This document shows, piece by piece, positions 47,114 through 63,938 of a stretch of 64,000 nt of DNA. This DNA comes from a virus. The stretch is from the IMG/VR virus record IMGVR_UViG_3300045988_176782, positions 32,001-96,000 of that record; one strand, given 5' to 3'. Positions within the stretch are counted from its first letter, which is position 1. Every line of letters begins with the position of its first letter. Position numbers and translations under genes: made by a program. The notes beneath the pieces were generated by a model that saw only the letters and a list, made by a program, of their open reading frames with translations, was not told where the DNA came from and did no database searches.

Positions 47114-47132
47114 CCTTATGTTAAACATAAGG
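47114..47132 (+). repeat. early-cassette palindrome copy 1
   Basis: CCTTATGTTAAACATAAGG flanked by T-run and A-run. Followed by TTGCGC-17-TGcTATAAT (47142-47170) and gene 47203. Confidence 0.9.
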
Positions 47133-47202
47133 AAAAGAAACTTGCGCTTTTATGCAAAGTATGCTATAATAAGGCGAAGCCGATAGAAAGAAGGTATCTA
47201 CC

Positions 47203-47433
47203 ATGTATAACTATGCACCCACTGCATCACTTTACCATGCTAAAGCGCTCACCCACCATGTCAATGTGCACCGTTTGCGCCTGCGCCGTTCCTACCACAG
47301 CGTTATTAACTGGCAGGGCGCGGGACATTACGGTTGCGAGCTGGGCTGGAAGCTGCTGAAGCTGCTATTGGTCGGAGCTGGAGCTGCTTCCTTCCCCGTT
47401 GCGTTTATCCTTTGGTGGTTCGGCATTGTATAA
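47203..47433 (+). CDS. small early protein with C-terminal TM helix (76 aa)
   Basis: RBS GAAAGAAGG. Sits downstream of cassette 1. The overlapping ORF 47018-47359 spans the promoter and is rejected. Confidence 0.55.
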   Translation: MYNYAPTASLYHAKALTHHVNVHRLRLRRSYHSVINWQGAGHYGCELGWKLLKLLLVGAGAASFPVAFILWWFGIV

Positions 47434-47454
47434 TGCCGAACTGCATTTGATTTT

Positions 47455-47473
47455 CCTTATGTTAGACATAAAG
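47455..47473 (+). repeat. early-cassette palindrome copy 2
   Basis: CCTTATGTTAGACATAAAG. Followed by TTTACA-17-TATAAT (47483-47511) and gene 47558. Confidence 0.9.
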
Positions 47474-47557
47474 AAAAAAGACTTTACAAAATCTCAAAAC
47501 TATAATATAATATAATCAACCCGAAAGGGCATAATTTAGAAAGAAGGTTAAACTATA

Positions 47558-47839
47558 ATGATGAACGCCGCCGCCGCTATGCGCAAGATAACCGAAACTG
47601 CTCGTTTGGATTTAGGCACGCAAGTCATAGACCATTGGATTGAGACAGTGGTTATTCCCGAAATGAAAGAACTGGCCGAACTCGGACTTTCCAATTATGT
47701 AGTTAATAATTGTCCCACTTTTCGCGATACAGAAATCAATAAGCAACTTTGCCAATATACTGGAAAAATTCTCAATGAAAACGGATACGACTACAGCACC
47801 AACAAAGAAAAAACCAAAATTGCAATCATCTATTGGTAA
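47558..47839 (+). CDS. hypothetical early protein (93 aa)
   Basis: Cassette gene with RBS GAAAGAAGG. The stop lies in the arm of a hairpin. Confidence 0.6.
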   Translation: MMNAAAAMRKITETARLDLGTQVIDHWIETVVIPEMKELAELGLSNYVVNNCPTFRDTEINKQLCQYTGKILNENGYDYSTNKEKTKIAIIYW

Positions 47840-47875
47840 GGCGCGAGCCTTACCATTTTATTTCATTTTCTTTTT

Positions 47876-47894
47876 CCTTATGTTAAACATAAAG
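47876..47894 (+). repeat. early-cassette palindrome copy 3
   Basis: CCTTATGTTAAACATAAAG. Followed by TTGCAA-17-TGtTATCAT, 5' hairpin GTTCC..GGAAC (47940-52) and gene 47985. Confidence 0.9.
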
Positions 47895-47984
47895 AAAAAA
47901 CCTATTGCAATTCTCCCAAAACTATGTTATCATATAATCGTTCCAAGGGAACACACCAATTACATTCTGAAAGGGGTTTATACT

Positions 47985-48176
47985 ATGTTTAGCGCTTACT
48001 ATGCTCCCGCCACCGTTTCCAAAGGGTATTTTGTTGATTCTGTTCTGCGCTCCACTTCCCGCCGTCTTTTGAAATACTTGGGCTGCGTCAATATTCAAAT
48101 TTCAAAAGTGGAAGATAATCGTTTTTTATCTTTCCTTTACTGCTCCGAACTATCCCGAAACCTTGAGCAAAATTGA
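47985..48176 (+). CDS. hypothetical early protein (63 aa)
   Basis: ATG 47985 follows GAAAGGGG. The ORF-track start at 47775 runs back through the previous gene and the promoter. Confidence 0.55.
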   Translation: MFSAYYAPATVSKGYFVDSVLRSTSRRLLKYLGCVNIQISKVEDNRFLSFLYCSELSRNLEQN

Positions 48177-48227
48177 ATTGGTTTTGGCCGCTTATGTCTA
48201 AGCGGCCACCTATTTCATTTTCTTTTT

Positions 48228-48246
48228 CCTTATGTTAGACATAAAG
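48228..48246 (+). repeat. early-cassette palindrome copy 4
   Basis: CCTTATGTTAGACATAAAG. Followed by TTGCGC-17-TGtTATACT, a 5' hairpin and gene 48332. Confidence 0.9.
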
Positions 48247-48331
48247 AAAAACCCCTTGCGCAAAACCCAAAACTATGTTATACTTGTATCGTTCCAAAGG
48301 GGAACAGAATTTATTGAAAGGTGGTCATACC

Positions 48332-48640
48332 ATGATTAACATTCGCACGATTCGCAAGCTCTCTAATAACGACGGTCTTACTCTCAAAAAAGGCAAGAAA
48401 ATTGCCTACAAAACCGGTTGGCAAGTAGCCGACCATGGTGTAGAATGCAAAACGCCGGAAGCTGCTATCAAAGCTGTGCGCGGGCTGGGCGGCGATTGTG
48501 GTATTTGGTACAGTGATGGAATTTACTATATTGACCACAGCTTCCGTGTAGATACCAAAAAGAAGGCGCTGGAAATTGGGCGGCGGCACAATCAGATTTC
48601 CGTTCTCGGTTGGCGTAAAATGAACTTGGCGTATTGCTAA
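48332..48640 (+). CDS. hypothetical early protein (102 aa)
   Basis: ATG 48332 follows GAAAGGTGG, in frame with ORF-track 48275. Stop in the hairpin GGCGTATT/AATACGCC. Confidence 0.6.
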   Translation: MINIRTIRKLSNNDGLTLKKGKKIAYKTGWQVADHGVECKTPEAAIKAVRGLGGDCGIWYSDGIYYIDHSFRVDTKKKALEIGRRHNQISVLGWRKMNLAYC

Positions 48641-48658
48641 TACGCCATCCCCTATTTT

Positions 48659-48677
48659 CCTTATGTTAAACATAAAG
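48659..48677 (+). repeat. early-cassette palindrome copy 5
   Basis: CCTTATGTTAAACATAAAG. Followed by TTGACA ... TATAAT and gene 48748. Confidence 0.9.
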
Positions 48678-48747
48678 AAAATAATCTTGACAACACTGTC
48701 CTATTTTAGTATAATACAATTACCAAATAACGAAAGGGGTTTTCACC

Positions 48748-48909
48748 ATGACGAATTACTACTACATCCACAACGAACACGGCTATCTTGTTACCTATGA
48801 CGAGATGATTGAAATTTGCCGCAACGAATATGATTGCGATGACCCTACTAATTCTCTAAGCTGGAAGGAATATTTCACCAAAACACGATATGTTGTGCCT
48901 TGCGAATAA
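48748..48909 (+). CDS. small early protein (53 aa)
   Basis: ATG follows GAAAGGGG. Stop TAA in the loop of CCTTGC/GCAAGG. Below the ORF-track cutoff. Confidence 0.5.
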   Translation: MTNYYYIHNEHGYLVTYDEMIEICRNEYDCDDPTNSLSWKEYFTKTRYVVPCE

Positions 48910-48924
48910 GCAAGGTCATATTTT

Positions 48925-48943
48925 CCTTATGTTTAACATAAAG
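48925..48943 (+). repeat. early-cassette palindrome copy 6
   Basis: CCTTATGTTTAACATAAAG. Followed by TTGCAC-17-TGtTATTAT, hairpin GTTCCAAAGGGAAC and gene 49027. Confidence 0.9.
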
Positions 48944-49026
48944 AAAAAGGTCTTGCACTTTCCGCGCCATTATGTTATTATGTAGGTGTTCCAAAGGGAA
49001 CGGAATAATGAAAGGTGGTTGTGATC

Positions 49027-49374
49027 ATGTTTGAATCTCGTGAAAATCTTCTAGATGAAATCATTTCGCAGGCCATTTCTGATGAAGTTTTCTGCCACAA
49101 CGTTCTCAAGCCCACCATTGAAGATTATGGCGATACAGCTGATGAAGCTGAATGGAAAACTACCGCGCAGGTCGCGGTTGGCGGCTATGTAAAGGATAAT
49201 TTTTCCGTGGAGCTGAGTCAAGCGTGGAAAATCGCGCAAAACCTTTTCACCAAGGAAGATATTGAGTATATGGCCGATGCCTTTATGAACTACTATGAAG
49301 AAGAAATTGAGGAAGCGCGAGCCGAATCCATTGAAAGGCATAAAGCAAAAATGAAAGAACTTTTTGGGGAGTAA
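49027..49374 (+). CDS. hypothetical acidic early protein (115 aa)
   Basis: ATG 49027 follows GAAAGGTGG, in frame with ORF-track 49015. Confidence 0.6.
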   Translation: MFESRENLLDEIISQAISDEVFCHNVLKPTIEDYGDTADEAEWKTTAQVAVGGYVKDNFSVELSQAWKIAQNLFTKEDIEYMADAFMNYYEEEIEEARAESIERHKAKMKELFGE

Positions 49375-49398
49375 AGTCCCCAATTTCATTTTTATTTT

Positions 49399-49417
49399 CT
49401 TTATGTTAAACATAAAG
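49399..49417 (+). repeat. early-cassette palindrome copy 7
   Basis: CTTTATGTTAAACATAAAG. Followed by TTGCAA-17-TATACT and gene 49503. Confidence 0.9.
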
Positions 49418-49502
49418 AAAAGAAGATTGCAATTTTCCCTTTAATATAGTATACTTATATCGTCCAAAAGGACATACCAATTTTAGAAAGAAGGTTTTTA
49501 CT

Positions 49503-49811
49503 ATGACAAAGGTTTCGGAACTCGTCTTTTCCAATCACTGTTTGCAGGAACGTCTTTACCGCATCAATCTAATTGAGGAAAAAATTGGTTATGGGCAGAT
49601 TGTAAAAGAATCCTATTGGCGCGGAAGTTATCATTTTCTAACTGACACTGGCGTGGCGTTTGTGGTAGATAATGATAAGCATTATATCATTACTCTTTAT
49701 TTGGTAGATGAAGGACAAGCAAATCGTTTGTACGGCGGAAAAATTCCTAAAAGTTTGCAAAAGAAAATCAGTAAAAATATTTCAATGGGATATGTAAAAT
49801 TGAGGGATTAA
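49503..49811 (+). CDS. hypothetical early protein (102 aa)
   Basis: RBS GAAAGAAGG. Stop in the loop of GAGGGAT TAAA ATCCCTC. Confidence 0.6.
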   Translation: MTKVSELVFSNHCLQERLYRINLIEEKIGYGQIVKESYWRGSYHFLTDTGVAFVVDNDKHYIITLYLVDEGQANRLYGGKIPKSLQKKISKNISMGYVKLRD

Positions 49812-49828
49812 AATCCCTCTCTGTTTTT

Positions 49829-49847
49829 CTTTATGTTAAACATAAAG
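49829..49847 (+). repeat. early-cassette palindrome copy 8
   Basis: CTTTATGTTAAACATAAAG. Followed by TTGACA-17-TATAAT and gene 49936. Confidence 0.9.
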
Positions 49848-49935
49848 AAAATCCCTCTTGACAAATTACGCCACTTCCTTTATAATTAAGACGTTCCCAG
49901 AAGGGAGCAACCAAAAACGAAAGGTGGTTTTCACT

Positions 49936-50271
49936 ATGATGACTTCTTCTACCTTCTACTTTGACCGTGCCCGCAATGGTTACGTATTCCGCCGTATGAA
50001 CCGCGCAGAATGGTACGAGACTTCTCATCTACTCCGCCGCTTCCACCTGACCGAAGGAATGGTGTTGGGGAGCTGGTACGAGGAACAGTTCTTCATGTTC
50101 TACAGTGGCTATGAGGGCTATGGCGTAGAAATCTCACCGTTGGACTCTGGCAAGACGAGCTACATCATGAGCTGCCGCCGTCTTTACCAGCTGGCCGAGA
50201 GCGAAGAAGAGCGGCGAACCCAACTGGAAAATGCACGCGAATGGTATAACAAATATATTAAGGCTCATTGA
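49936..50271 (+). CDS. hypothetical early protein (111 aa)
   Basis: ATG 49936 follows GAAAGGTGG, in frame with ORF-track 49858. Confidence 0.6.
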   Translation: MMTSSTFYFDRARNGYVFRRMNRAEWYETSHLLRRFHLTEGMVLGSWYEEQFFMFYSGYEGYGVEISPLDSGKTSYIMSCRRLYQLAESEEERRTQLENAREWYNKYIKAH

Positions 50272-50290
50272 GCCTTAATTTTATTTTCTT

Positions 50291-50309
50291 CCTTATGTTA
50301 AACATAAAG
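50291..50309 (+). repeat. early-cassette palindrome copy 9
   Basis: CCTTATGTTAAACATAAAG. Followed by TTGCAT-17-TGaTACTAT and gene 50395. Confidence 0.9.
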
Positions 50310-50394
50310 AAAATGGTATTGCATTTTCTTCCCCGATATGATACTATATAGGTGTTCCAAGGGGAACGAAATAAAGAAAAGGACGGTGCAAACT

Positions 50395-50616
50395 ATGTAT
50401 ACTAAAATTGATAAACGACAGGCGCGCAAACTCTGGAATGAGGGCAAAAATTTTACTATGGTATCTTGCAATCTGCGGCCAGAGTTTGGAATCAATGTAA
50501 ATTCTGCGAGCTGGAAGCAACTTAAGGACTTTGATAAGCTCATCAATGAGTTTAGCTATTATAACTGCGGAGACTCTGCGCGTGGCCGCTACCCGGCATT
50601 TTATGTGGAGCTGTAA
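50395..50616 (+). CDS. hypothetical early protein (73 aa)
   Basis: ATG 50395 follows AAAAGGA, in frame with ORF-track 50338. Stop in the loop of GTGGAGC/GCTCCAC. Confidence 0.55.
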   Translation: MYTKIDKRQARKLWNEGKNFTMVSCNLRPEFGINVNSASWKQLKDFDKLINEFSYYNCGDSARGRYPAFYVEL

Positions 50617-50631
50617 AAGCTCCACTATATT

Positions 50632-50650
50632 CTTTATGTTAAACATAAGG
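50632..50650 (+). repeat. early-cassette palindrome copy 10
   Basis: CTTTATGTTAAACATAAGG. Followed by TTGACA-17-TGaTATTAT and gene 50726. Confidence 0.9.
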
Positions 50651-50725
50651 AAGCTGGCATTGACACAAACAAAAACTTTTGATATTATATAGATGTTCTA
50701 AGGAACAAGAAAGGAAGTAAAAGGT

Positions 50726-51118
50726 ATGACGATTGGTGCTTGGATTTTGGTTATTATCTTGGGTATTATTGGAATTGGTTTTGCTATATTTTATTTTCTT
50801 GACGATGAAAAAACTCATGGACTGGTGGCTATACTAATTACTATTATTGTAATTGGTGGTCTAATCCTTGGTTTGTCTTGGTTTTATAATAATACTGGTT
50901 CTGGCCTCCGTGCAATGAAAGACCAGCAGAGCAATCTTAACAACGGTATCAACCGCGACATTAAAGTTGTTGAAAGCAATGGTTTTGTTTCCTACGAATT
51001 TAGCGGCAAGGCTGATTTGGAAACGCACGACGATTATATTGTATTTGAAAGTGAAGGTAAGCGCACTATTATTTACAAGAGTTATACTAGCACGATTGTA
51101 ATTACGGAAATTGATTAA
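50726..51118 (+). CDS. early membrane protein, two TM helices (130 aa)
   Basis: RBS AAAGGAAG. The N-terminal ~60 aa form two hydrophobic helices. Confidence 0.6.
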   Translation: MTIGAWILVIILGIIGIGFAIFYFLDDEKTHGLVAILITIIVIGGLILGLSWFYNNTGSGLRAMKDQQSNLNNGINRDIKVVESNGFVSYEFSGKADLETHDDYIVFESEGKRTIIYKSYTSTIVITEID

Positions 51119-51144
51119 AGGGAGACTTCTCCCTTCCTTAAATT

Positions 51145-51163
51145 CTTTATGTTAAACATAAAG
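51145..51163 (+). repeat. early-cassette palindrome copy 11
   Basis: CTTTATGTTAAACATAAAG. Followed by TTGACA-17-TGtTATAAT and gene 51227. Confidence 0.9.
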
Positions 51164-51226
51164 AAAAAATAATTGACACAAAAATAATTTTCTGTTATAA
51201 TCTTTTTACGAAAGGGGTTGAAAGAT

Positions 51227-51418
51227 ATGGATAATTCAAAGTACCCTATGATTTTTGGTCAAGGTGAGCGATTGGGATACTATGCCTATGTGTTGGACTG
51301 GAATAGTTGTTGCGTCAAGTTGCGTATTCCTGTTGGTATGTTTACATTTTTCTATGATGAATGGTATAGCTGGGATGAAGCCATGGAGCTGTATAATTTT
51401 GAAGGAGTTGAGCTGTAA
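51227..51418 (+). CDS. hypothetical early protein (63 aa)
   Basis: ATG 51227 follows GAAAGGGG, in frame with ORF-track 51218. Confidence 0.55.
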   Translation: MDNSKYPMIFGQGERLGYYAYVLDWNSCCVKLRIPVGMFTFFYDEWYSWDEAMELYNFEGVEL

Positions 51419-51603
51419 TGACAAATTTTGAGAGAGAAGAACAGGCAATTTTGACAGAAGCTGCAAGCACAAAAGCTAATATTTTCCGTATGATTAAAGA
51501 CCAGCTGCTAACAGAAGAAGAAGGCTACTTATGGCTCAATGACAAGCTGCTGATACTCCAAGAACGTTGGTTCCAGCTCCATCGCAAGTTGATGGAAGGT
51601 TAA
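51418..51603 (+). CDS. hypothetical early protein (61 aa)
   Basis: TAATG overlap with the upstream gene. Stop in the loop of GGAAGGT TAA ACCTTCC. Confidence 0.55.
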   Translation: MTNFEREEQAILTEAASTKANIFRMIKDQLLTEEEGYLWLNDKLLILQERWFQLHRKLMEG

Positions 51604-51619
51604 ACCTTCCACTCAAATT

Positions 51620-51638
51620 CCTTATGTTAAACATAAAG
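51620..51638 (+). repeat. early-cassette palindrome copy 12
   Basis: CCTTATGTTAAACATAAAG. Followed by TTGTAT-17-TGtTATTAT and gene 51708. Confidence 0.9.
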
Positions 51639-51707
51639 AAACAAACCTTGTATTTTTTCGCAAACTATGTTATTATCTAATTGTTCCAAGAGGAACAGAA
51701 AGGAAGT

Positions 51708-52127
51708 ATGAATATGAATCAGATGGACGGAAATTTCTCTCATCAGGTTTGGCAGAGCGCAGTGCAATTCCAGAAGGAAACCATTGGCAAGAACAATAAC
51801 TTGTATGAGTTCCTTCAGTGGGTTAGCGAGAAAGCTAACAACAAAGACACCTATCGGTGGGCTGATGCCGTCAATAACTATGCCGCAGGCCGCTACACCG
51901 TGGAAACCTTCGTGAAGGGCCGCAATGTGGTTGTGTATGTGGGCGATGAGGTTGATAATGTGTTCTGCCGTGGTTCTGCTCATTGCAACAAGGACGACCA
52001 CTTTGATTCTAATATTGGCCGCGCCATTGCGCTGTATCGTGCGCTTTCCAGTCTGGAAGATGGCAAAGACGACAGCGGTATCTACAATCCCAAGCGAACC
52101 GACCTTGAGCCGCCGTTTGACATCTAA
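51708..52127 (+). CDS. early protein with C-terminal C..D.FD.NIGRAIA..RAL motif (139 aa)
   Basis: ATG 51708 follows GAAAGGAAG. ...GSAHCNKDDHFDSNIGRAIALYRAL is shared with gene 52459. Confidence 0.6.
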   Translation: MNMNQMDGNFSHQVWQSAVQFQKETIGKNNNLYEFLQWVSEKANNKDTYRWADAVNNYAAGRYTVETFVKGRNVVVYVGDEVDNVFCRGSAHCNKDDHFDSNIGRAIALYRALSSLEDGKDDSGIYNPKRTDLEPPFDI

Positions 52128-52160
52128 TGGAAATGGGGATTTTCCCTATTTCATTTAATT

Positions 52161-52179
52161 CCTTATGTTAAACATACAG
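52161..52179 (+). repeat. early-cassette palindrome copy 13
   Basis: CCTTATGTTAAACATACAG. Followed by TTGACA-17-TGaTATTAT and gene 52256. Confidence 0.9.
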
Positions 52180-52255
52180 AAAACCATATTGACAATTTTC
52201 CCCCGAAATGATATTATATCACTGTTCCAATAGGGAACGAGGAAGGAGAAACACC

Positions 52256-52441: not shown

Positions 52442-52458
52442 GAAAGGAAGCTGGGACT

Positions 52459-58492: not shown

Positions 58493-58541
58493 GATTAAAG
58501 GGAAGGACAAAAAGTCCTTCCTTTTTTTTATTAGATTTTTT

Positions 58542-58560: not shown

Positions 58561-58636
58561 AAAAAATATTTGACTTTTCTTTTCTTTTCCATTATACTAA
58601 TAGTGTCCTAAAGAGGACAAGAAAGGAAGTTTTAAT

Positions 58637-59050
58637 ATGTTGCATTATTATCGGGTTCTCTCTACGACTTATAACAATGGAGTTACTGTTGGTAAAAGAT
58701 ATGGCTCTGGTATTATAGACGAAAGTGAAGTCAAAGAAGAAACTATTTCCATTACTTGGGAAAACCTTGAAGAAGTTTATTATGACTATGGCTTAAAACT
58801 CCCCTTTAATATTTGGAACTTCAAGCGCGGTCGTGTTATTAGTTTCTTTGAAGGTGGCCTCACTGACAAGAATCGCCGCGATATTAAAGAATGGAAAACT
58901 CCTGAACTTAATATGAAACTTGTTATCACTTATGAAGTTATGCCTTATTCTCTTAATGATATTCTTAACTATTGGGACAGCGAAAAAGCAATCCAATATT
59001 TGCGTGAAAGAAATTTGTCTTGCCCTATTGACATCTTGAAAAAGTCGTGA
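58637..59050 (+). CDS. hypothetical early protein (137 aa)
   Basis: RBS GAAAGGAAG. Its 3' end carries TTGACA...TGaTATAAT for the next gene. Confidence 0.6.
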   Translation: MLHYYRVLSTTYNNGVTVGKRYGSGIIDESEVKEETISITWENLEEVYYDYGLKLPFNIWNFKRGRVISFFEGGLTDKNRRDIKEWKTPELNMKLVITYEVMPYSLNDILNYWDSEKAIQYLRERNLSCPIDILKKS

Positions 59051-59088
59051 TATAATCAAGGAGAACTTGAAAGAAAGGAAGTTTTGAT

Positions 59089-59556
59089 ATGAATGCAAAT
59101 TTTACCCTAATCTTTGATATGGATGGAACAATCGTATCTTTGTATGATGTTCCCGACTGGCTTAAAAAAATTCGCAATGAAGATACTTCCCCTTACCTTG
59201 ACGCCGCCCCAATGTGGGATATGGCAGAACTTTCCACCATTTTGAACAAATTGTTGGAAATTGGTGTAGAAATTAAAATTGTAAGTTGGTGCGCAAAACA
59301 CGCAACGAAGACTTATGATGATGAAGTCCGCAAGGCAAAACGTGAATGGTTGAAGAAGTTTGACTTTCCTTGTTCTTCCTGTCGCATTACACCTTATGGT
59401 TATCCCAAAGAATACTTGAGAAACAAGAACCGTATCAATATTCTAATTGACGATAACAAAGAAGTTAGGGAAAATTTCCAGCGGTTTGATGGTTGCGAAA
59501 CGATAGACCCAACAAAGATTGACATTGTAGAGTGGTTGAAGGGTTTGATGGAGTAA
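59089..59556 (+). CDS. HAD-superfamily phosphatase, 5'(3')-deoxyribonucleotidase-like (155 aa)
   Basis: LIFDMDGTIV is HAD motif I (DxDGT). ILIDDN is motif IV. The size fits the small NT5C-like phage enzymes. Confidence 0.6.
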   Translation: MNANFTLIFDMDGTIVSLYDVPDWLKKIRNEDTSPYLDAAPMWDMAELSTILNKLLEIGVEIKIVSWCAKHATKTYDDEVRKAKREWLKKFDFPCSSCRITPYGYPKEYLRNKNRINILIDDNKEVRENFQRFDGCETIDPTKIDIVEWLKGLME

Positions 59557-59573
59557 TCCATCAAACCATTTTT

Positions 59574-59592
59574 CTTTATGTTAAACATACAG
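59574..59592 (+). repeat. early-cassette palindrome copy 22
   Basis: CTTTATGTTAAACATACAG. Followed by TTTACT-16-TGcTATACT and gene 59671. Confidence 0.9.
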
Positions 59593-59670
59593 AAAACACA
59601 CTTTACTTTTTCCTAATTTATGCTATACTATACTTGTTCCTAAGGGGAACAGAAAGAGAGGAAGAAAGAC

Positions 59671-60075
59671 ATGGAAAACACCACTTATCTGATTCGGTTC
59701 CTTATCTTGAATGACGAGAACGAGGTTCTCAAGAACTTCATTCTGACTGAACGTAAATACAATACCCGCGAAGAAGCCGCCGAAGCCGCACAGACAGTGT
59801 GCTGTGTGCTAATGAACCATTGCGGATGGAATGTATTCTATCGTATTGTTAATCCCGTTGCTATTTGTACAAGTGGCTTTCACGAGATGACCGCAGACGG
59901 TAGCATCGTTAGTGATGATGAATTACACGAAGAAGAAGAAAACGAGGATGAGGACGAAGAAGAATACGAAGGTGAAGAAGAAAATGATTCCTACAACGAG
60001 CTTACGGACGAAGAAATAAGAGCCATTCTCCGGTATGCACCCAACTTTATTAGAAAGAAATATGAGGACGAGTAA
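59671..60075 (+). CDS. early protein with strongly acidic tract (134 aa)
   Basis: HEEEENEDEDEEEYEGEEEND tract. Standard cassette RBS. Confidence 0.6.
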   Translation: MENTTYLIRFLILNDENEVLKNFILTERKYNTREEAAEAAQTVCCVLMNHCGWNVFYRIVNPVAICTSGFHEMTADGSIVSDDELHEEEENEDEDEEEYEGEEENDSYNELTDEEIRAILRYAPNFIRKKYEDE

Positions 60076-60093
60076 TCGTCCTTTTCTTGTTTT

Positions 60094-60112
60094 CTTTATG
60101 TTAAACATACAG
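60094..60112 (+). repeat. early-cassette palindrome copy 23
   Basis: CTTTATGTTAAACATACAG. Followed by TTGACT-16-TGaTATAAT and gene 60190. Confidence 0.9.
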
Positions 60113-60189
60113 AAAATTCCATTGACTTCCTCCCTAAATATGATATAATAAATTTGTCCTTGAGGGGCAGAAGAAAGAAAGGAAGTTAA

Positions 60190-60792
60190 ATGCATGATTT
60201 TCAAGACTTACGAACCACCACTCTGACCGACCGCGCTTCTATTGGTGTTGCTACTGTAAAGTTTAATGCTGTTTGCCGTGCCTGCGGAAAGAACAAGCCA
60301 AACAAGAATGATTATATTGATTACTGTTTTAATAAATTGGGAGCAATGGAAAAATGCAAACTCAAACATGACTGGCTTCGTGATGAAGATGACCTTGACC
60401 GCGCCGCTTGGGAAGCACAGTGCCAACAGGAATGGTATAACATTCTTGATACCATTCGTTCCAATGATTCTTCCCCTATCTTCGCAGTTTATATCGCTAT
60501 TCTTCCTTCTGGCGTGAAGTGCGGCGAAACTAAGAACTTGCGTCAGCGCTATTCTTCCTTGAAAGCAAGCAACGACATTCTCCACATGTACTACTTGCCT
60601 GTAGAAAACAAGGAACAAAGCACCGCCGCAGAAGATGCCCTTCACTATATTTTTGACCACGCTAAAGGTATGCGGCGAGAGAAGAACAAAAAAGACTACT
60701 ATTCTTGCGAAGAAGATTATGCCCGCAAATTTATTGAGCGAAATAAGCGAGAAATTTATGATGCGATTATGGCAGAAATTGAGGGAGACTGA
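60190..60792 (+). CDS. T5orf172/GIY-YIG-like domain protein (200 aa)
   Basis: FAVYIAILPSGVKCGETKNLRQRYSSL fits the T5orf172-type GIY-YIG core. Confidence 0.55.
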   Translation: MHDFQDLRTTTLTDRASIGVATVKFNAVCRACGKNKPNKNDYIDYCFNKLGAMEKCKLKHDWLRDEDDLDRAAWEAQCQQEWYNILDTIRSNDSSPIFAVYIAILPSGVKCGETKNLRQRYSSLKASNDILHMYYLPVENKEQSTAAEDALHYIFDHAKGMRREKNKKDYYSCEEDYARKFIERNKREIYDAIMAEIEGD

Positions 60793-60810
60793 TTCTCCCT
60801 TTTATTTTTT

Positions 60811-60829
60811 CCTTATGTTTAACATAAAG
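60811..60829 (+). repeat. early-cassette palindrome copy 24
   Basis: CCTTATGTTTAACATAAAG. Followed by TTGACT-17-TGtTATACT and gene 60906. Confidence 0.9.
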
Positions 60830-60905
60830 AAAATCTCTCTTGACTTTTCGTGTCTTTCCTGTTATACTATCAGTGTTCTAAAGAGAACAGAAAGGCGGTA
60901 ACTAC

Positions 60906-61907
60906 ATGGCCAAACAGAAATTACTCTTAACCTTTGATACAGAGACTTGCACTATCTCTGTACCTGATTCTTGGAATCTGACTGCCAACGAGAAGAAAAA
61001 AATCTGTATTACCCGTCCGCTTATTTATGATATTGGCTGGACAATTTCTTCTCGTTCTGCTGGTATTATTGAAAAGAAAAACTATCTCATTGCCGAAACA
61101 TTCTCCGTTCCCTCCGTTTTCAATACTGCTTACTATAAAGAAAAACGCCCCATTTATCTTGATATGATTAACAACGGTGAGTTGACTGTTCGTTGTTGGC
61201 GCGAAGTAATGGAAATTTTTCTCGCAGACTGCGAACAGGCAGATTTAATCTGCGCTTTCAATGAACAATTTGACCTCCGTGCAATTAACTTTACCGAGCT
61301 TTATATCAACAAACTTTATAGTCCTAACTATCAAAGTTGGTATGAAAATCAGGTTGCGCTCTGTTGGAAAATCGCCCATCAACCCTACAAAAAGAAAAAT
61401 GACAAAGACTTTGACCCCTTGTATTTTACCTTCCGAAACAAACAGTATAAGGTGATGGATATTTGGGGCTTAGCTTGCGAAAACATTATCAATACCCCTA
61501 CATATAAACGAGCTTGTCTTGAACATTCTCTTATTTCTCCGTCTGGAATGTATTTTAGCACTAATACCGAAAATGTTAGACGCTTCATCTATAAAGAATA
61601 CGGCTTTATTGAAGAACATACAGCACTTTCTGACGCAGAAATTGAAACAGAAATCCTTCTTAAAGCCCTCAAGCGTGGCAAGAAGGTTGAAGGAATTGAG
61701 TTTTTTCCCTTCCGAAAACTTGGTTATGTTTCTGATTTTATTGTAGAAGATAGCCGCATTACTCCCGCTATGGCACAAAATGCACTTGATATTCTGAATG
61801 CCTATATTGACCAGCATAGCGAACAACAAACACCGTATTTGTCGCAAGTTATCAACCATACGGCGCGGATAGAAAAAAGACGTGATTCTCTTTTGTGGGA
61901 CGAATAA
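60906..61907 (+). CDS. DEDDh 3'-5' exonuclease (DnaQ-like fold), 333 aa
   Basis: Exo I LTFDTET, Exo II AFNEQFDL, Exo III HTALSDAEIE (H-x4-D). Confidence 0.6.
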   Translation: MAKQKLLLTFDTETCTISVPDSWNLTANEKKKICITRPLIYDIGWTISSRSAGIIEKKNYLIAETFSVPSVFNTAYYKEKRPIYLDMINNGELTVRCWREVMEIFLADCEQADLICAFNEQFDLRAINFTELYINKLYSPNYQSWYENQVALCWKIAHQPYKKKNDKDFDPLYFTFRNKQYKVMDIWGLACENIINTPTYKRACLEHSLISPSGMYFSTNTENVRRFIYKEYGFIEEHTALSDAEIETEILLKALKRGKKVEGIEFFPFRKLGYVSDFIVEDSRITPAMAQNALDILNAYIDQHSEQQTPYLSQVINHTARIEKRRDSLLWDE

Positions 61908-61934
61908 TGTCCCACCTTTTTATAAAAATTTCTT

Positions 61935-61953
61935 CCTTATGTTAAACATACAG
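61935..61953 (+). repeat. early-cassette palindrome copy 25
   Basis: CCTTATGTTAAACATACAG. Followed by TTGACA-17-TGtTATACT and gene 62059. Confidence 0.9.
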
Positions 61954-62058
61954 AAAAAGATTATTGACAAAAAATAAAAATCTTGTTATACTATATATGT
62001 TCCTTGAGAGAGGAAAAAAGAGGAAGGACACCTCACAAACCAGAGAGGAAGAAAACAT

Positions 62059-62595
62059 ATGAAAAAGGATTTTAAGGCGGAAGTTCTGGCACTGGCTGAA
62101 TCTATGGTGGGCATTCCCGAAGGTGCTTTCAAGGTTCTCCACTCCAAGCAGGAATGTTATTGCTTTGACACTGGCAAGAAGGATGAAGAAGGCCGTCCCG
62201 TTCCGGCTCTGTTGTATGTGAAGATTCCCGACATTGAAGGAACGAAAACTCGTGATGGTTTTGACGTGGAACTTGCGAAAGCCGCCTACGAAGAAAAGAT
62301 GACTGCCGCCGCAAACAAGCCCGCGAAGAAGTCCGCGCCCAAGGGCGGTGACCCGGCTGTGGCTGAAAAGCGTGAAGAACGCATGAAGGTTCTGCGCCGT
62401 TGGTGGGAGAATGAAGCCGAATATGGTCACGATTACACCAGCACCGAAGTATTCAACGCTCTGCCTGATATTTACGGCATTGACGTTAATACGCAGGGCG
62501 CAATGCTGACAGGCCGAGACCTTGCCCAGCTTGCGAAGGAAGGGCTTGCCGAAATGAATATGATTGAAAAGAAGAAGTGCTATTCCAAGCGTTAA
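62059..62595 (+). CDS. early protein, family with 54636 and 57941 (178 aa)
   Basis: Same layout: N-terminal domain, Lys/Ala/Glu linker, C-terminal domain (...TSTEVFNALPDIYG... compared with ...TSTDIANTCTDIYP...). Confidence 0.6.
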   Translation: MKKDFKAEVLALAESMVGIPEGAFKVLHSKQECYCFDTGKKDEEGRPVPALLYVKIPDIEGTKTRDGFDVELAKAAYEEKMTAAANKPAKKSAPKGGDPAVAEKREERMKVLRRWWENEAEYGHDYTSTEVFNALPDIYGIDVNTQGAMLTGRDLAQLAKEGLAEMNMIEKKKCYSKR

Positions 62596-62639
62596 GGTAA
62601 GAGGGGACGAAAGTCCCCTTTTATTTTAAGAGTAGGTTT

Positions 62640-62658
62640 CCTTATGTTAAACATACAG
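62640..62658 (+). repeat. early-cassette palindrome copy 26
   Basis: CCTTATGTTAAACATACAG. Followed by TTTACA-17-TGgTATTAT and the 62732 operon. Confidence 0.9.
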
Positions 62659-62731
62659 AAACAGACCTTTACATTTCTGCGGCGATATGGTATTATATCA
62701 ATGTTCCAAGGAACAGAAAGGAAGGTAGAAT

Positions 62732-62983
62732 ATGAAGATTAAACACGCAGACACATTAGGCATTCATTGCTTTAAGAATCTTAAAGCAGGAGATACTTTT
62801 TACTATAACGACAAACTTTATATAAAAGTGCATTCTCTCTCTGTTACTTTTGCCTATAAGAAAGTCATTATCGCGAATGCTCTAAGTTTAGAGGTTTTCG
62901 CTTTAGCTTATATTAAAGATGATGAAAAAGTCGCTTGTGTTGAAAGTGAGCTTACTGTTAGTAATTATAGGAGGATGAACTAA
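62732..62983 (+). CDS. small early protein, paralogue 1 of 4 (83 aa)
   Basis: ...LKAGDTFYYNDKLYIKV... motif, shared by the next three genes. Confidence 0.6.
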   Translation: MKIKHADTLGIHCFKNLKAGDTFYYNDKLYIKVHSLSVTFAYKKVIIANALSLEVFALAYIKDDEKVACVESELTVSNYRRMN

Positions 62984-62984
62984 G

Positions 62985-63218
62985 ATGGAAATCATTTACG
63001 CCTATCAAACTCAATCATTTTCTAAAATTATCGCGGGAGATATTTTCAAGCACGAAGATGAATACTATATGAAGCTCGCGCAAAAATCGGAACCTGTTAT
63101 TGTTTTTAATAACAACTTTGTCCCTAATGCCGTTGGAATGAGAGACGGCGAACTAATTTATTTTCCTGCTGATACAAAAGTGATGTTTGTTCCTGCAAAA
63201 CTTCAAGTAGAAAGGTGA
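62985..63218 (+). CDS. small early protein, paralogue 2 of 4 (77 aa)
   Basis: ...IIAGDIFKHEDEYYMKLA... Confidence 0.6.
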   Translation: MEIIYAYQTQSFSKIIAGDIFKHEDEYYMKLAQKSEPVIVFNNNFVPNAVGMRDGELIYFPADTKVMFVPAKLQVER

Positions 63219-63223
63219 AATGT

Positions 63224-63466
63224 ATGCAAATTACTACTGTTGATAAAGAAAAAGAAATTTCTCTCCATTGTATTGACTATGGTGCAGTATTCAAATATTA
63301 TAATGAATATTACATAAAACTGAAATATGCAGATACCAGTAATTTACCCCGATACGAAAGCGGAGCTTACCCCACTGTTGTTTGTTTAGAAGATGGAAGT
63401 TTAACTTGTTTTGCAGAAACGACTTTAGTGGAAGTCGTAGATGCAGAGTTAAGAGTAAAGGAGTGA
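63224..63466 (+). CDS. small early protein, paralogue 3 of 4 (80 aa)
   Basis: ATG 63224 follows AAAGGTGA (ORF-track GTG 63215 is in frame). ...DYGAVFKYYNEYYIKLK... Confidence 0.55.
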   Translation: MQITTVDKEKEISLHCIDYGAVFKYYNEYYIKLKYADTSNLPRYESGAYPTVVCLEDGSLTCFAETTLVEVVDAELRVKE

Positions 63467-63471
63467 AAGAT

Positions 63472-63708
63472 ATGAAGGTTCTTTCCGAAGATTTTTGTAA
63501 GAGGACTTTTCAGGAACTTCCTGAAGGTGAAATTTTTCGCTATGGCAACAACTTTTTTATTAAACTTGTCCAATTAGAAAAAGTCATTATGCACGATGAA
63601 GAAGGTTATCCTATCAATGCCGTTAATATTGGAAATGGCGTTCCTGCTTATTTCCAAGAAGGTGTTATTATTACTTACTTTGACGACGAAGTTATGGCAA
63701 TGAGGTGA
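63472..63708 (+). CDS. small early protein, paralogue 4 of 4 (78 aa)
   Basis: ATG 63472 follows AAAGGAG, in frame with ORF-track 63382. ...PEGEIFRYGNNFFIKLV... Confidence 0.6.
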   Translation: MKVLSEDFCKRTFQELPEGEIFRYGNNFFIKLVQLEKVIMHDEEGYPINAVNIGNGVPAYFQEGVIITYFDDEVMAMR

Positions 63709-63911
63709 AGTACATGCACATTTTAGTTTGTATCTTTCTTGCCTTTTACTTTACTGAATGTATTTCTTCCGCTTTTGAAATTGCAGGAGAAGATTGTCCA
63801 ACACTTTCACTTACGGATACTTTGCTGTTTCTATTGTGTTGTATTGTACCGATGAAGTGCATAGCCAAGGCATACAAGAAACTTGATAATTGGGTAAGAG
63901 GACTTGAGTAA
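63705..63911 (+). CDS. small membrane protein (68 aa)
   Basis: Two hydrophobic helices. GTGA/ATG-type overlap with the upstream gene. Stop in the loop of GGACTTG/CAAGTCC. Confidence 0.55.
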   Translation: MKYMHILVCIFLAFYFTECISSAFEIAGEDCPTLSLTDTLLFLLCCIVPMKCIAKAYKKLDNWVRGLE

Positions 63912-63919
63912 GCAAGTCC

Positions 63920-63938
63920 TTTTTGTTTTCCTTATGTT
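63920..63938 (+). repeat. early-cassette palindrome copy 27 (no promoter follows)
   Basis: CCTTATGTTTAACATAAAG. Followed by the convergent terminator instead of a -35. Confidence 0.9.

Follow-up and report, generated by a model that had tools for sequence, protein, structure and literature searches.

A lineage-specific 23-bp palindrome at a fixed position upstream of promoters in a phage cassette array: a candidate operator

The window, a stretch of 64,000 nucleotides, derives from an uncultured human-gut phage of ~165 kb that is TAG-recoded; the array described here reads in the standard code. The array spans positions 47112-63950 and contains exactly 27 copies of a palindrome found nowhere else in the window. 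The copies are built into units of constant order. An intrinsic terminator comes first, followed by the 23-bp palindrome (centred at about -54) with its A-run, then by a near-consensus sigma-A promoter and, in the mRNA, a 5'-terminal hairpin and a Shine-Dalgarno sequence ahead of one to five small orphan genes. The repeated module is ~120 bp long. The units are listed below with the palindrome coordinates first; the palindromes carry no strand, and their flanks are oriented along the + strand.

Copy 1: 47112-47134; -35 47142-47147 (TTGCGC), -10 47165-47170; gene 47203-47433
Copy 2 (core variant TTAGAC): 47453-47475; promoter 47483-47511; small hairpin 47520-47529; gene 47558-47839
Copy 3: 47874-47896; promoter 47905-47933; 5' hairpin 47940-47952; gene 47985-48176; cassette missing from relative B
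Copy 4: 48226-48248; promoter 48256-48284; 5' hairpin 48291-48305; gene 48332-48640
Copy 5: 48657-48679; promoter 48687-48715 (12/12 consensus match); no 5' hairpin; gene 48748-48909
Copy 6: 48923-48945; promoter 48953-48981; 5' hairpin 48987-49002; gene 49021-49374
Copy 7: 49397-49419; promoter 49427-49455; 5' hairpin 49462-49473; gene 49503-49811
Copy 8: 49827-49849; promoter 49858-49886; 5' hairpin 49893-49908; gene 49936-50271
Copy 9: 50289-50311; promoter 50319-50347; 5' hairpin 50353-50368; gene 50386-50616
Copy 10: 50630-50652; promoter 50660-50688; 5' hairpin 50694-50707; gene 50726-51118
Copy 11: 51143-51165; promoter 51173-51201; no 5' hairpin; genes 51227-51418, 51418-51603
Copy 12: 51618-51640; promoter 51648-51676; 5' hairpin 51682-51697; gene 51708-52127
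Copy 13: 52159-52181; promoter 52189-52217; 5' hairpin 52222-52241; genes 52256-52441, 52459-52704
Copy 14: 52720-52742; promoter 52750-52778; 5' hairpin 52783-52800; gene 52827-53387
Copy 15: 53405-53427; promoter 53435-53463; genes 53493-54065, 54161-54349, 54346-54525; palindrome-free internal promoter 54105-54133
Copy 16 (first base A, not T): 54539-54561; promoter 54569-54596; 5' hairpin 54602-54618; genes 54627-55052, 55042-55275
Copy 17: 55294-55316; promoter 55324-55352; 5' hairpin 55357-55374; genes 55391-55606, 55608-55862, 55855-56304
Copy 18: 56321-56343; promoter 56351-56379; 5' hairpin 56384-56401; gene 56417-56617; internal promoter 56607-56635
tRNAs after the internal promoter of copy 18: tRNA-Leu 56678-56765; tRNA-Lys 57036-57111; tRNA-Ile 57115-57190
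Copy 19: 57195-57217; promoter 57225-57253; 5' hairpin 57258-57275; gene 57292-57732
Copy 20: 57756-57778; promoter P1 57786-57813; hairpin 57819-57838; palindrome-free second promoter 57882-57911; gene 57941-58492, winged-helix paralog A
Copy 21: 58540-58562; promoter 58570-58598; 5' hairpin 58604-58619; genes 58637-59050, 59089-59556; internal promoter 59028-59056
Copy 22: 59572-59594; promoter 59602-59629; 5' hairpin 59634-59652; gene 59671-60075
Copy 23: 60092-60114; promoter 60122-60149; 5' hairpin 60153-60171; gene 60190-60792 (T5orf172 domain)
Copy 24: 60809-60831; promoter 60840-60868; 5' hairpin 60874-60889; gene 60906-61907, a 333-aa protein with an FDTET motif, conserved clade-wide
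Copy 25: 61933-61955; promoter 61964-61992; hairpin 62000-62015; long leader; gene 62059-62595, winged-helix paralog B
Copy 26: 62638-62660; promoter 62668-62696; 5' hairpin 62702-62715; five genes within 62732-63911, four of them tandem paralogs
Copy 27: 63928-63950; no + strand promoter; adjoins the minus-strand terminator 63957-63979

The gene whose terminator lies beside copy 27 is on the minus strand and continues past the edge of the window. Its promoter is driven, in relatives, by a further palindrome ~416 bp past the position of the window end, and the terminal copy is used symmetrically: one promoter on the minus strand lies 19 nt from it and one on the plus strand ~51 nt.

The conserved element is TTCYTTATGTT-W-AACATAHRGAA, and its information content (~2 bits per position) exceeds that of the -35 and -10 hexamers. 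When the window was scanned with TATGTTNNACATA allowing one mismatch, 27 sites were found within 47117-63945, together with one weak, chance-level match at 28497 (~2 chance matches expected, both strands counted). The full 23-mer, TTCYTTATGTTWAACATAHRGAA, returned only the same 27 sites at up to three mismatches, against 0.01 expected by chance, and there are therefore no degenerate copies. A preliminary description of this DNA had counted 27 copies of a recurrent 17-bp palindrome, always on the + strand. The count, the recurrence and the palindromy hold, but the element is 23 bp long, and the orientation is a property of the flanks only, the element itself being symmetric. In an exact-pattern scan of IMG/VR, two relatives of 165-168 kb contain 29 and 25 copies, with matches only within one ~17 kb stretch each.

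The same description had placed a promoter after 26 copies and a 5' hairpin in most units, and both statements are confirmed. A sigma-A-type promoter lies beside 26 of the 27 copies: the -35 hexamer starts 12-13 nt past ACATA, or 19-20 nt from the dyad centre, and a spacer of 16-17 nt separates it from a TATAAT-like -10, with TG ahead of the -10 in 18 of the 26. This distance puts the dyad centre at about -54. It is 19 nt in 22 copies and 20 nt in four; of 206 unique modules from >25 gut metagenome contigs, 187 keep it at 19-20 nt, even though the bases between dyad and -35 are not conserved. The -35 is TTGACA or TTGACT in 16 copies and TTGCxx, TTTACx or TTGTAT in the remainder. The upstream terminator (hairpin and T-run) lies at a variable 11-29 nt from the dyad. 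It is plausible, without experimental data, that the T-run doubles as the tail of the terminator and that the A-run acts as a proximal UP subsite. About 22-23 of the 26 leaders open with a GTTCC..GGAAC-type hairpin 4-6 nt past the -10 (mean folding energy -5.7 kcal/mol, versus -1.2 for shuffled sequences). As inferred from established knowledge, the hairpin would most likely shield these short leaders against decay that starts from the 5' end. The positions of transcription starts and the "early" timing of these genes are likewise inferred.

Between close relatives, entire cassettes are inserted or deleted, in register with the modules. Relative B lacks cassette 3 and cassettes 6-8 and carries a 779-bp insertion at 59071 that includes a palindrome and a promoter of its own; an additional 208-bp cassette stands at copy 8 in relative A and four other strains, and two strains have a different cassette at the position of copy 23. 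The 30 cassette families are collinear, each wholly present or absent. Between strains, modules are 90-100% identical and gene bodies 66-96%, and the closest strain changes cassette by cassette, with divergence switching at module boundaries. Two crossovers could be resolved, one in the 5' hairpin (aagggga) and one in the -35 (ttgca), neither in the palindrome. The strain comparisons show that the ~120-bp modules act as homologous-recombination joints for the gain, loss or replacement of entire cassettes, and the plug-in cassettes resembling promoter-early-stem-loop (PeSL) units that had been proposed from a single genome are thereby supported. Since cassette order is collinear in all strains, this is evidence of gain, loss and replacement and not of reshuffled order. 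Across strains, orthologous modules differ at 0.026 differences per site in the outer palindrome arms, 0.020 in the -35 hexamer, 0.014 in the -10 hexamer, ~0.08 in linker and spacer, and 0.19 in ORFs. Judged by these values, the palindrome is under purifying selection comparable to that on the -35 and -10 hexamers.

The same architecture recurs in relatives with 26-69% identity in the shared early protein, but with lineage-specific palindromes around a common core, TGTT-W-AACA or, in some lineages, TGTA-W-TACA. At the same position stand TTAGAYGTTWAACRTCTAA in L155, AGATGTTNAACATCT in L157, L168 and L159, TATCTGTTNAACAGATA in L156, L169 and L170, and TTAGATGTAWTACATCTAA in L151; palindrome type cuts across backbone relatedness, and the A-run is not conserved in other lineages. 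The motif extends beyond this genome and keeps its position relative to genes; the opposite outcome, which would have refuted the initial proposal, did not arise. L156 and L157 share 88% identity in the marker protein and 66-82% in orthologous DNA, and their palindrome type differs at all but one of ~29 sites, one L157-type site being retained inside L156. From these alignments, the switch is a concerted change of the putative operator. No odd palindrome is present at -54 in 23 of the 54 surveyed loci. Even-length or other palindromes occur in part of those 23, and in others a TTAAC extension of the -35 takes their place. There are also relatives in which as many as about a quarter of the copies stand beside terminators without a recognisable promoter at a phased distance, a hint that the palindrome may have a boundary function as well.

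The distance from palindrome to promoter clusters at 18-20, 28-30, 39-41 and 49-51 nt, whole helical turns apart. At ten loci the dyad lies 18-20 nt upstream of 139 promoters, and 42 of 45 larger distances are 28-30, 39-41, 49-51 or 59 nt (binomial P about 2e-20). The phasing counts, here and in the wider survey, contain orthologous, non-independent sites, so the P values overstate independence. In the 31 loci that could be typed among the 54 surveyed (47 of the 54 from IMG/VR), 82 of 108 non-proximal distances are in phase, versus 28% expected.

We infer, with a probability of about 0.6, that the palindrome is the operator of a lineage-specific, dimeric, probably phage-encoded regulator that contacts RNA polymerase, although a protein that binds it has yet to be identified. 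A regulator site near -55 had been suggested before; the dyad fixed at -54, its hexamer-like constraint across strains, the lineage-specific palindromes at the same position and the whole-turn steps of the farther ones all favour it. The regulator dimer would bind the palindrome sequence-specifically on one helix face just upstream of polymerase, and would act through an alpha-CTD-type contact and not by covering the core promoter. One regulator would then join ~27 otherwise independent early promoters into one regulon. Whether it activates or represses is not settled. Several observations count against an operator: the promoters are near consensus and ought not to need an activator, the array contains four strong + strand promoters (54105, 56607, 57882 and 59028) that lack the palindrome, some relatives have promoterless copies, and 23 surveyed loci have no odd palindrome at -54. 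Scans of early proteins against Pfam or PHROGs gave no match to a DNA-binding family above the curated cut-off, and among the protein families encoded within 10 kb of the marker gene none follows palindrome type. The sole candidate family consists of three winged-helix paralogs, two of them inside the window. Their predicted models reach pLDDT 82-92 in the C-terminal domain only, with Foldseek E-values of 0.01 or worse, and structural support for the assignment is modest. The putative recognition helix hardly differs between lineages with different palindromes.

The same mechanism could operate with a host transcription factor as the binder, placing a host regulator site at -54 of every early promoter for immediate polymerase recruitment or host-state sensing, with lineage-specific palindromes mirroring different hosts. 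Early promoters must function before any phage protein exists, no phage family near the array covaries with palindrome type, and the phasing is consistent with a class-I-type activator; some relatives also bear a host-type site, TTGTTAAAAACTTAACAA, in individual early promoters, which we take to match the clostridial Rex box. We nevertheless consider a host factor unlikely, since the 23-mer is found in 0 of 185,579 species-representative genomes, and the L156/L157 difference would need a host switch plus concerted change at ~28 sites, with one L157-type site persisting within L156. Nor is a TGTT-W-AACA operator known to us for any Firmicutes regulator. Less probable again is a palindrome without any regulatory role, merely the most homogenised core of a PeSL-type joint in which gene conversion preserves identity. 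Whole-cassette indels and mosaicism with junctions within modules fit this explanation, as do promoterless copies at cassette borders in relatives and the PeSL precedent in T4-type phages (PMC2839356, PMC4122927), and long perfect identity would favour cassette exchange. Both resolved crossovers lie outside the palindrome, however; homogenisation should reach the flanks, yet identity drops sharply just beyond the 23-mer and the short A/T runs beside it, with the distance to the -35 nonetheless preserved, and recombination leaves dyad symmetry, helical phasing and lineage-specific sequence at a fixed position unexplained.

The remaining explanations are very improbable. T-run, palindrome and A-run might together form an optimised UP or curved-DNA element contacted by the alpha-CTD of host polymerase with no extra factor. 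The location is that of UP elements (-62 to -41), with A/T tracts near -65, -54 and -43, and where the dyad is ~50 nt upstream, T-tract/A-tract sequence fills -58 to -38; phased A/T tracts were reportedly described by Helmann in 1995 for Bacillus sigma-A promoters, and the array tracts match that phasing. But UP elements require A/T richness and not an invariant G/C-containing dyad, concerted lineage changes (TTATGTT, AGATGTT, ATCTGTT) would be meaningless for contacts of the alpha-CTD in the minor groove, the palindrome is also present at -85, with a separate UP-like stretch downstream of it, and the A-run lacks conservation elsewhere. It is a shade less credible that the palindrome acts as an RNA hairpin in read-through transcripts, as an RNase III site, decay barrier or anti-termination signal. 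It could form a 10-bp stem, and RNase III-recognised hairpins separate early cistrons in T7 and SP82. Lying downstream of terminators and upstream of promoters, though, it would rarely enter a transcript; the distance that stays constant is the one to the -35 and not that to the terminator, the predominant L155 form would give a C-A mismatch in + strand RNA, and no Rfam family matches the array region. We give least credence to a target for a cassette-moving site-specific recombinase or nuclease, integron-attC-like or homing-like. Small palindrome-bounded cassettes in an array, a core GTTWAAC similar to the integron GTTRRRY / RYYYAAC boxes, homing-endonuclease genes frequent in such arrays and palindrome types independent of backbone relatedness would suit it. 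Against this, crossovers are not at the palindrome, the cassettes have their own promoters and a collinear order in all strains, no integrase is present in the window or the examined flanks, and helical phasing with promoters is left unexplained. Integron attC sites are also 57-141 bp with unpaired bases, whereas the array site is 23 bp and perfectly symmetric.

The array with its proposed operator has parallels in two known systems. Like the PeSL cassettes of T4-type phages, the array modules behave as joints for cassette gain, loss and replacement, and the L156 and L157 palindromes appear to have changed in concert, as operators do in phage repressor systems.

The 27 copies of the palindrome lie within 17 kb. 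Searches with the TATGTTNNACATA pattern at no more than one mismatch found 27 sites between 47117 and 63945, plus one weak match at 28497, with ~2 expected by chance. Alignment of the copies revealed that conservation extends over a 23-mer, TTCYTTATGTT-W-AACATA-H-RGAA, whose information content, ~2 bits per position, exceeds that of the -35 and -10 hexamers downstream. When the 23-mer was searched with up to three mismatches, the identical 27 sites and no others were recovered (0.01 expected); since this search adds no site, the family is sharply bounded and without decayed copies. The copy number in the preliminary description is retained, but the conserved element is longer than was noted there. 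Every copy had also been placed on the + strand. The element itself is a true dyad, and orientation is real only for its flanks, where the left T-run, the right A-run, and an A or C at position +7 are strand-specific. For phage repressor operator arrays, one criterion is a short site that recurs almost unchanged many times within a genome, and it is fulfilled here.

Upstream of the palindrome is a terminator-like, G+C-rich hairpin with a T-run, whose last paired base is at a variable distance (11-29 nt) from the dyad center. The palindrome is followed by RGAAAA, ~5 unconserved bases, and a -35 hexamer, which starts 19 nt from the dyad center in 22 copies and 20 nt in four. If the first base of this hexamer is counted as -35, the dyad center is at -54. 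The sigma-type promoter proposed to follow 26 copies is found at this fixed distance: 26 modules contain a TTGACA-like -35 and a TATAAT-like -10 separated by 16-17 nt, with TG before the -10 in 18 of them. The 5' hairpin ascribed to most units is also borne out, with ~22-23 of the 26 leaders containing one when each sequence was folded individually. It starts 4-6 bases past the -10, most commonly in the form (U)GUUCC-loop-GGAAC(A), and the mean folding energy of the leaders is -5.7 kcal/mol, compared with -1.2 for shuffles. Where the hairpin sequence varies, G-U pairs or, in a few cases, double changes (for example GUUCU/AGAAC and GUCC/GGAC) keep the stem paired. Directly 3' of the hairpin is a Shine-Dalgarno site of the AGAAAGGAAG type, followed by ATG, and each unit contains one to five small genes.

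One palindrome copy has no + strand promoter, and four strong promoters within the array have no palindrome.

The palindrome copy without a + strand promoter and the strong array promoters without a palindrome
Palindrome copy 27: no + strand promoter, followed by the terminator of a minus-strand gene
54105, + strand: strong promoter without palindrome
56607, + strand: strong promoter without palindrome
57882, + strand: strong promoter without palindrome
59028, + strand: strong promoter without palindrome

In relatives, an extra copy ~416 bp to the right drives this minus-strand gene from the opposite side, also at 19 nt, and the same extra copy is ~51 nt from a + strand promoter. The palindrome-less promoters lie in or just past coding sequence without an upstream terminator, or are the second of two tandem promoters. 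All four have a perfect TTGACA, and among palindrome-linked promoters weaker -35 hexamers are frequent. Another small repeat, ATTGTAACAATTTTGTAACAATTTTGTG (54066-54104), immediately adjoins the -35 of the 54105 internal promoter and is kept at the orthologous promoter in two relatives (L154 ~3660-3706, L155 ~2790-2833). Just ahead of the array, four + strand genes (45580-46920) are headed by a palindrome-less promoter (TTGCAT / 17 nt / TGATAATAT) adjoined by ~2.5 direct repeats of TTTGTTCATAGTTTGTTTACAG (45300-45400), and these repeats with their promoter could be a separate regulatory class.

In exact-pattern scans, 29 and 25 copies were found on two IMG/VR contigs (165.6 and 168.2 kb, respectively) of a single metagenome, on each contig within one ~17-kb stretch; in genomes of 165-168 kb the site is limited to 17 kb. 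Multi-copy arrays are also present on more than 25 human-gut metagenome contigs. Confinement of the motif to a single genome, which would have spoken against its significance, can be set aside, and the promoter spacing is kept in these arrays. Over all contigs there are 30 cassette families, whose order is constant and which are present or absent as whole cassettes. In a three-way alignment of the window (W) with two close relatives, A and B, relative B lacks cassette 3 (window 47950-48301), with the crossover in the 7-nt aagggga of the 5' hairpin. Relative B also lacks cassettes 6-8 (48953-50318), with the crossover in ttgca of the -35, and, at 59071, has an insertion of 779 bp that includes a palindrome and promoter of its own. 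In relative A, a further cassette of 208 bp is present at 49853. Identity between genomes is 90-100% in the modules (-30 to +95) and 66-96% in gene bodies, and the closest pair switches among cassettes.

Identity between the window (W) and relatives A and B in four cassettes
Cassette 4: W-B 91%, W-A 74%
Cassette 14: W-A 90%, W-B 75%
Cassette 17: A-B 96%, W-A 78%
Cassette 19: W-B 96%, W-A 69%

With indels bounded by modules, crossovers within modules, and mosaic identity between the window and relatives A and B, the earlier view of plug-in cassettes resembling the promoter-early-stem-loop (PeSL) cassettes of T4-type phages is supported. Since the crossovers lie outside the palindrome, the recombination is homologous and not site-specific. 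We note that copy number also varies among strains for four tandem paralogous genes of 77-83 aa (62732-63708), of which 62728-63217 is missing from relatives A and B and 63469-63710 also from B; these breakpoints are at gene starts, not at palindromes.

Between strains, orthologous modules show 0.026 differences per site in the outer palindrome arms, 0.020 in the -35, and 0.014 in the -10, with ~0.08 in the linker and spacer and 0.19 in ORFs and terminator regions. The outer arms are an unbiased measure, because they were not used in finding the modules. In 187 of 206 unique modules the palindrome is 19-20 nt from the -35, while the bases between are free to vary. This pattern excludes recent duplication or blanket gene conversion and can be explained by selection on exact sequence and position.

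Nearly all dyads of the window's lineage are 19-20 nt from the -35, and a minority in other lineages are further off. Dyad-to-promoter distances at ten loci were 18-20 nt (139 sites), 28-30 nt (12), 39-41 nt (4), 49-51 nt (25), or other (4), with clear gaps at 22-27, 32-37, and 43-47 nt. Non-proximal sites number 45, and 42 of them deviate by no more than 1.4 nt from 19 + n x 10.33 (binomial P ~2e-20); in a larger survey, 82 of 108 such sites are in phase, versus 28% expected. We note that the phasing P values are inflated, as orthologous sites were counted repeatedly. Promoters with a dyad ~50 nt upstream have a T-tract/A-tract (UP-like) stretch between dyad and -35. Restriction to one face of the helix is a classical sign of a DNA-bound protein touching RNA polymerase, as for class I CRP sites, GalR, and phi29 p4, and the class I-type criterion, positions differing by integral helical turns, is fulfilled. 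At some of the ~50-nt promoters, TTGTTAAAAACTTAACAA is found between palindrome and -35 (L151 ~7690-7710 and 9885-9905; L156 ~17500-17520), which we take to match the clostridial Rex operator (consensus presumably TTGTTAA-N4-TTAACAA); there is no Rex-like site in the window.

For the marker protein (333 aa, cassette 24) there are 1,684 clusters of homologues, many of them on contigs of 166-189 kb. At loci of other phages with marker homologues of 26-69% identity, the unit architecture is common to all those read, and the dyad is lineage-specific.

Dyads at loci of other phages
L154: dyad as in the window
L155: TTAGAYGTTWAACRTCTAA
L157, L168, and L159: AGATGTTNAACATCT
L156, L169, and L170: TATCTGTTNAACAGATA
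L151: TTAGATGTAWTACATCTAA

The marker proteins of L156 and L157 are 88% identical and the DNA 66-82%, yet all but one of ~29 sites have switched type. The remaining site, at L156 13486 before a tRNA cassette, is a single AGATGTT-type dyad among ~28 of the ATCTGTT type. This cassette is no closer to L157 than its neighbors are, and the odd dyad may be either an ancestral leftover or a unit escaping common control. In a wider survey of 54 loci, 47 of which were from IMG/VR, an odd-length palindrome was found at -54 in 31, with at least eight types and half-sites that mostly end in TGTT and otherwise in TGTA. A motif that changes in concert between sublineages is a criterion for operator arrays, and it is fulfilled here. 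L174 has a different palindrome, TAGATGTTTAAACATCTA, at a similar distance, and even-length palindromes in more distant relatives include this one, ACATATATATGT, and ATGTACGTACAT. At L186 and roughly twelve further IMG/VR loci the -54 dyad is missing, and a conserved TTAAC extension directly adjoins the -35 (TTAACTTGACW), in 29 copies over 21 kb in L186. Because other surveyed loci have other palindromes or the TTAAC extension, the -54 palindrome marks a large sub-clade and not the whole group. A 10-kb contig with at least 13 AGATGTT-type dyads (JAZSRY010000023.1; L159/L165) is binned into an Oscillospiraceae MAG, a weak hint, and the sole one, to the host.

DNA similarity searches against GenBank phages, in both near and distant modes, yielded tRNA matches only and no phage match, and Rfam found nothing in the region beyond three tRNAs. 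Among large Firmicutes phages, Enterococcus EF1/H1/VRE9, Clostridioides LIBA2945, Brevibacillus Sundance, and the gut phage phAss-1 encode proteins that share 22-43% identity with a minus-strand structural protein; of these, phAss-1 is classified in the 'code 15 clade'. With TAG read as sense over the minus-strand 6000-45000 block, ORFs of at least 150 aa cover 30.8 kb instead of 19.8 kb and a 3,323-aa ORF appears, likely the tape measure, while the array region is unaffected. The late/structural block is recoded (TAG, genetic code 15), and the array is the standard-code part of the phage. ARAGORN detected no suppressor tRNA in the window. The array is presumably the early part, a timing that we infer from the standard code, the near-consensus host-type promoters, and the orphan genes; of the ~38 proteins it encodes, hardly any matches Pfam or PHROG significantly. 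The palindrome is absent from phAss-1 (OQ749652; L028-L030), in which ~25 copies of another highly conserved promoter, TTGACWTAAAAAAATTTTTRTGNTATAATATATATAGAAA, lie along replication and metabolism genes, with conservation in the spacer and the initial transcribed region; the phAss-1 paper mentions neither promoters nor repeats.

Cassette 18 contains a trio of tRNA genes for A/U-ending codons (56678-57190; Leu-CAA, Lys-UUU, Ile-UAU) served by a separate internal promoter at 56607. Relatives have retained the trio; most of these have anticodon UAA in tRNA-Leu, and some lack tRNA-Ile. Homing-endonuclease-like genes (39106-41442, 3320-4414, and 60190-60792) comprise two of HNH type (phrog_559), one LAGLIDADG, and one T5orf172, the last being the one inside the array. 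Relative B has nothing that corresponds to the segment 40374-41639, with one HNH gene; presence/absence polymorphism of this kind is typical of homing.

Several functions other than a regulator site were weighed for the palindrome. UP elements are A/T-rich stretches at -40 to -60 that do not depend on a particular dyad containing G/C. As an UP element or curved DNA, only the A-run, at ~-45 to -41, would fit a proximal UP subsite, and this explanation is rejected on the invariant G/C positions and concerted lineage changes. An RNA hairpin or processing site is not compatible with an element that sits between terminator and promoter, has its spacing tied to the -35, and in the L155 form would give a C-A mismatch. 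Nor is the palindrome itself an intrinsic terminator: it is A/T-rich and has an A-run after it on either strand, and the true terminators are separate upstream hairpins. In some relatives, copies adjoin terminators without a phased promoter, and the palindrome may therefore have a boundary or roadblock role alongside its inferred role as an operator.

Integron attC sites are imperfect palindromes of 57-141 bp with R''/L''-L'/R' boxes, promoterless cassettes, an adjacent IntI, and crossover at GTT. The array meets none of these criteria in its perfect 23-bp dyad, cassettes with their own promoters, and crossovers elsewhere; an attC-like or nuclease target is rejected on its crossover positions, wrong size, and collinear order, and no integrase was found in the stretches examined. 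A pure recombination joint would account for the cassette exchanges but leaves the dyad, the phasing, and the selection profile unexplained.

Dyad symmetry, near-invariance, fixed or phased position, two-sided use, and concerted lineage change together argue for a sequence-specific dimeric regulator in contact with polymerase. The preliminary description had suggested a dimeric regulator site near -55, and a constrained, phased, lineage-specific dyad at -54 agrees with it, although the regulator is unidentified and there are no binding data. A dimer on the dyad would act on the promoter by touching RNA polymerase, with both the alpha-CTD contact and the change in activity being inferred. Such a factor is more likely encoded by the phage than by the host, an inference that rests on the different types in close relatives and on the absence of the 23-mer from 185,579 bacterial and archaeal genomes. 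The sign of regulation is open. Near-consensus promoters and the usual need for early-gene shut-off speak for a repressor, or for silencing in a prophage or plasmid state; for an activator, the phased upstream geometry is more typical, and the -35 hexamers linked to the palindrome are often the weaker ones.

Nearly all early proteins were scanned against Pfam and PHROGs, and none matched a DNA-binding family above the cut-off. One candidate family has three paralogs per genome in every lineage read (57941-58492, 62059-62595, and a third just past the window). The AlphaFold model of the 62059-62595 protein has a C-terminal strand-helix-helix-helix-wing domain (pLDDT 82-92), and its best structural matches are the winged-helix regulators CodY, Fur/Zur, ArsR, PadR, and MarR, with Foldseek E-values of 0.01 or worse. 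The putative recognition helix barely differs among lineages with different dyads, and these predicted folds lend only weak support to the paralogs as the regulator. Pairwise identity of 29 protein families was regressed on sharing of palindrome type over the 54 loci, with control for backbone identity, and no convincing candidate near the array emerged; the top family was an antisense artefact of the marker gene itself. PDB sequence searches with two candidates gave no match. An AbrB/MazE-like early protein was rejected as regulator because it is found in some lineages only, not in that of the window. Its AbrB/SpoVT-like N-terminus (MKSTGIVRRIDDLGRVVIPKEIRR..., nearly a copy) is encoded at L151 3509-3904, L156 13068-13466, L157 12074-12475, and L168 13164-13586, and the window's lineage has homologues of the C-terminal domain only (51708-52127 and 52459-52704).

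A more far-reaching reading, to which we give roughly one chance in four, is that the palindrome is an address label or regulatory barcode: a lineage-specific phage-encoded transcription factor, touching host RNA polymerase from phased upstream positions, would turn all units of the host-takeover regulon on or off together. Were this so, the label would set compatibility or immunity groups among co-infecting relatives, because ~28 sites and the factor must match; it would decide which exchanged cassettes are expressed and so govern gene flow in a large clade of TAG-recoded gut phages. The phage group is large, has never been cultured, comes from gut and other host-associated metagenomes, and uses TAG as sense in its late genes; the array touches on how TAG-recoded phages time their standard-code early phase. 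A single 23-bp site may serve as bait for the regulator, transcription starts are predicted for ~30 units, and the natural dyad variants and helical-turn shifts form a ready-made mutational series. With its terminator, putative operator, strong promoter, presumably stabilizing 5' hairpin, and Shine-Dalgarno site, the compact module amounts to a natural, insulated unit for gene expression in Firmicutes.

Class I activator sites place CRP at -61.5, -71.5, -82.5, and -92.5, and repressors or regulators that contact alpha-CTD include GalR at -60.5 and phi29 p4. The array shares with them a dimer (inferred here) on a dyad upstream of the -35 at whole-helical-turn positions only, and differs in its positions (~-54, -64, -75, -85), its near-consensus promoters, and the sharing of one site by ~27 consecutive promoters. 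The SPO1 host-takeover module is said to contain dense small early genes with strong sigma-A promoters and ribosome-binding sites, and dense small early genes with strong sigma-A promoters and strong ribosome-binding sites are common to both; we know of no shared invariant upstream dyad in SPO1, and TF1 sites, to our knowledge, are without such a consensus. In phiC31, a temperate actinophage, early promoters are of a type other than sigma-70, and the repressor reportedly binds CIRs, 17-bp palindromic operators in many conserved intergenic copies near early promoters and terminators. A palindromic operator in many highly conserved intergenic copies is the shared feature, and we are not aware of a fixed -54 geometry, helical phasing, or a cassette-exchange role described for CIRs. 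The array also resembles the P1 C1 operators and differs from them in its symmetric site, restriction to the early region, and phase-locking to sigma-A promoters.

Stoperators of Cluster A mycobacteriophages (L5 gp71 type) occur in ~25-35 intergenic copies per genome, bound by one phage regulator, and motif and regulator specificity change together between sublineages (PMC9283540). The two systems share one short, highly conserved, multi-copy intergenic site with a motif concerted by sublineage. Stoperators are 13-14 bp, asymmetric, monomer-bound, oriented with transcription, and genome-wide, and they stop elongation (PMC9283540), whereas the site here is a 23-bp dyad of the early region only, phase-locked upstream of promoters, with its binding protein unidentified.

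PeSL cassettes are ~100-bp composite modules repeated many times around small orphan genes in T4-type phages (PMC2839356; PMC4122927), and their crossovers, too, occur at various points within the module (PMC2839356). At the level of sequence evidence, the array shares with them a terminator stem-loop, an A/T-rich stretch, and a strong host-sigma early promoter. It also shares small orphan genes and relatives that differ by cassette insertion, deletion, or replacement with crossovers inside modules. There is no sequence relationship, however, and the phage here is a TAG-recoded, siphovirus-like Firmicutes phage, not a T4-like myovirus. The array further adds the invariant 23-bp dyad at a fixed -54 and the 5'-terminal mRNA hairpin, and it is one contiguous, collinear 17-kb array in place of scattered hyperplastic regions. 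The modules are therefore analogous to PeSL and not a member of it, and the principle of repeated regulatory modules as gene-exchange joints extends beyond T4-like phages of Gram-negative bacteria. No description of the palindrome motif was found in the searchable literature.
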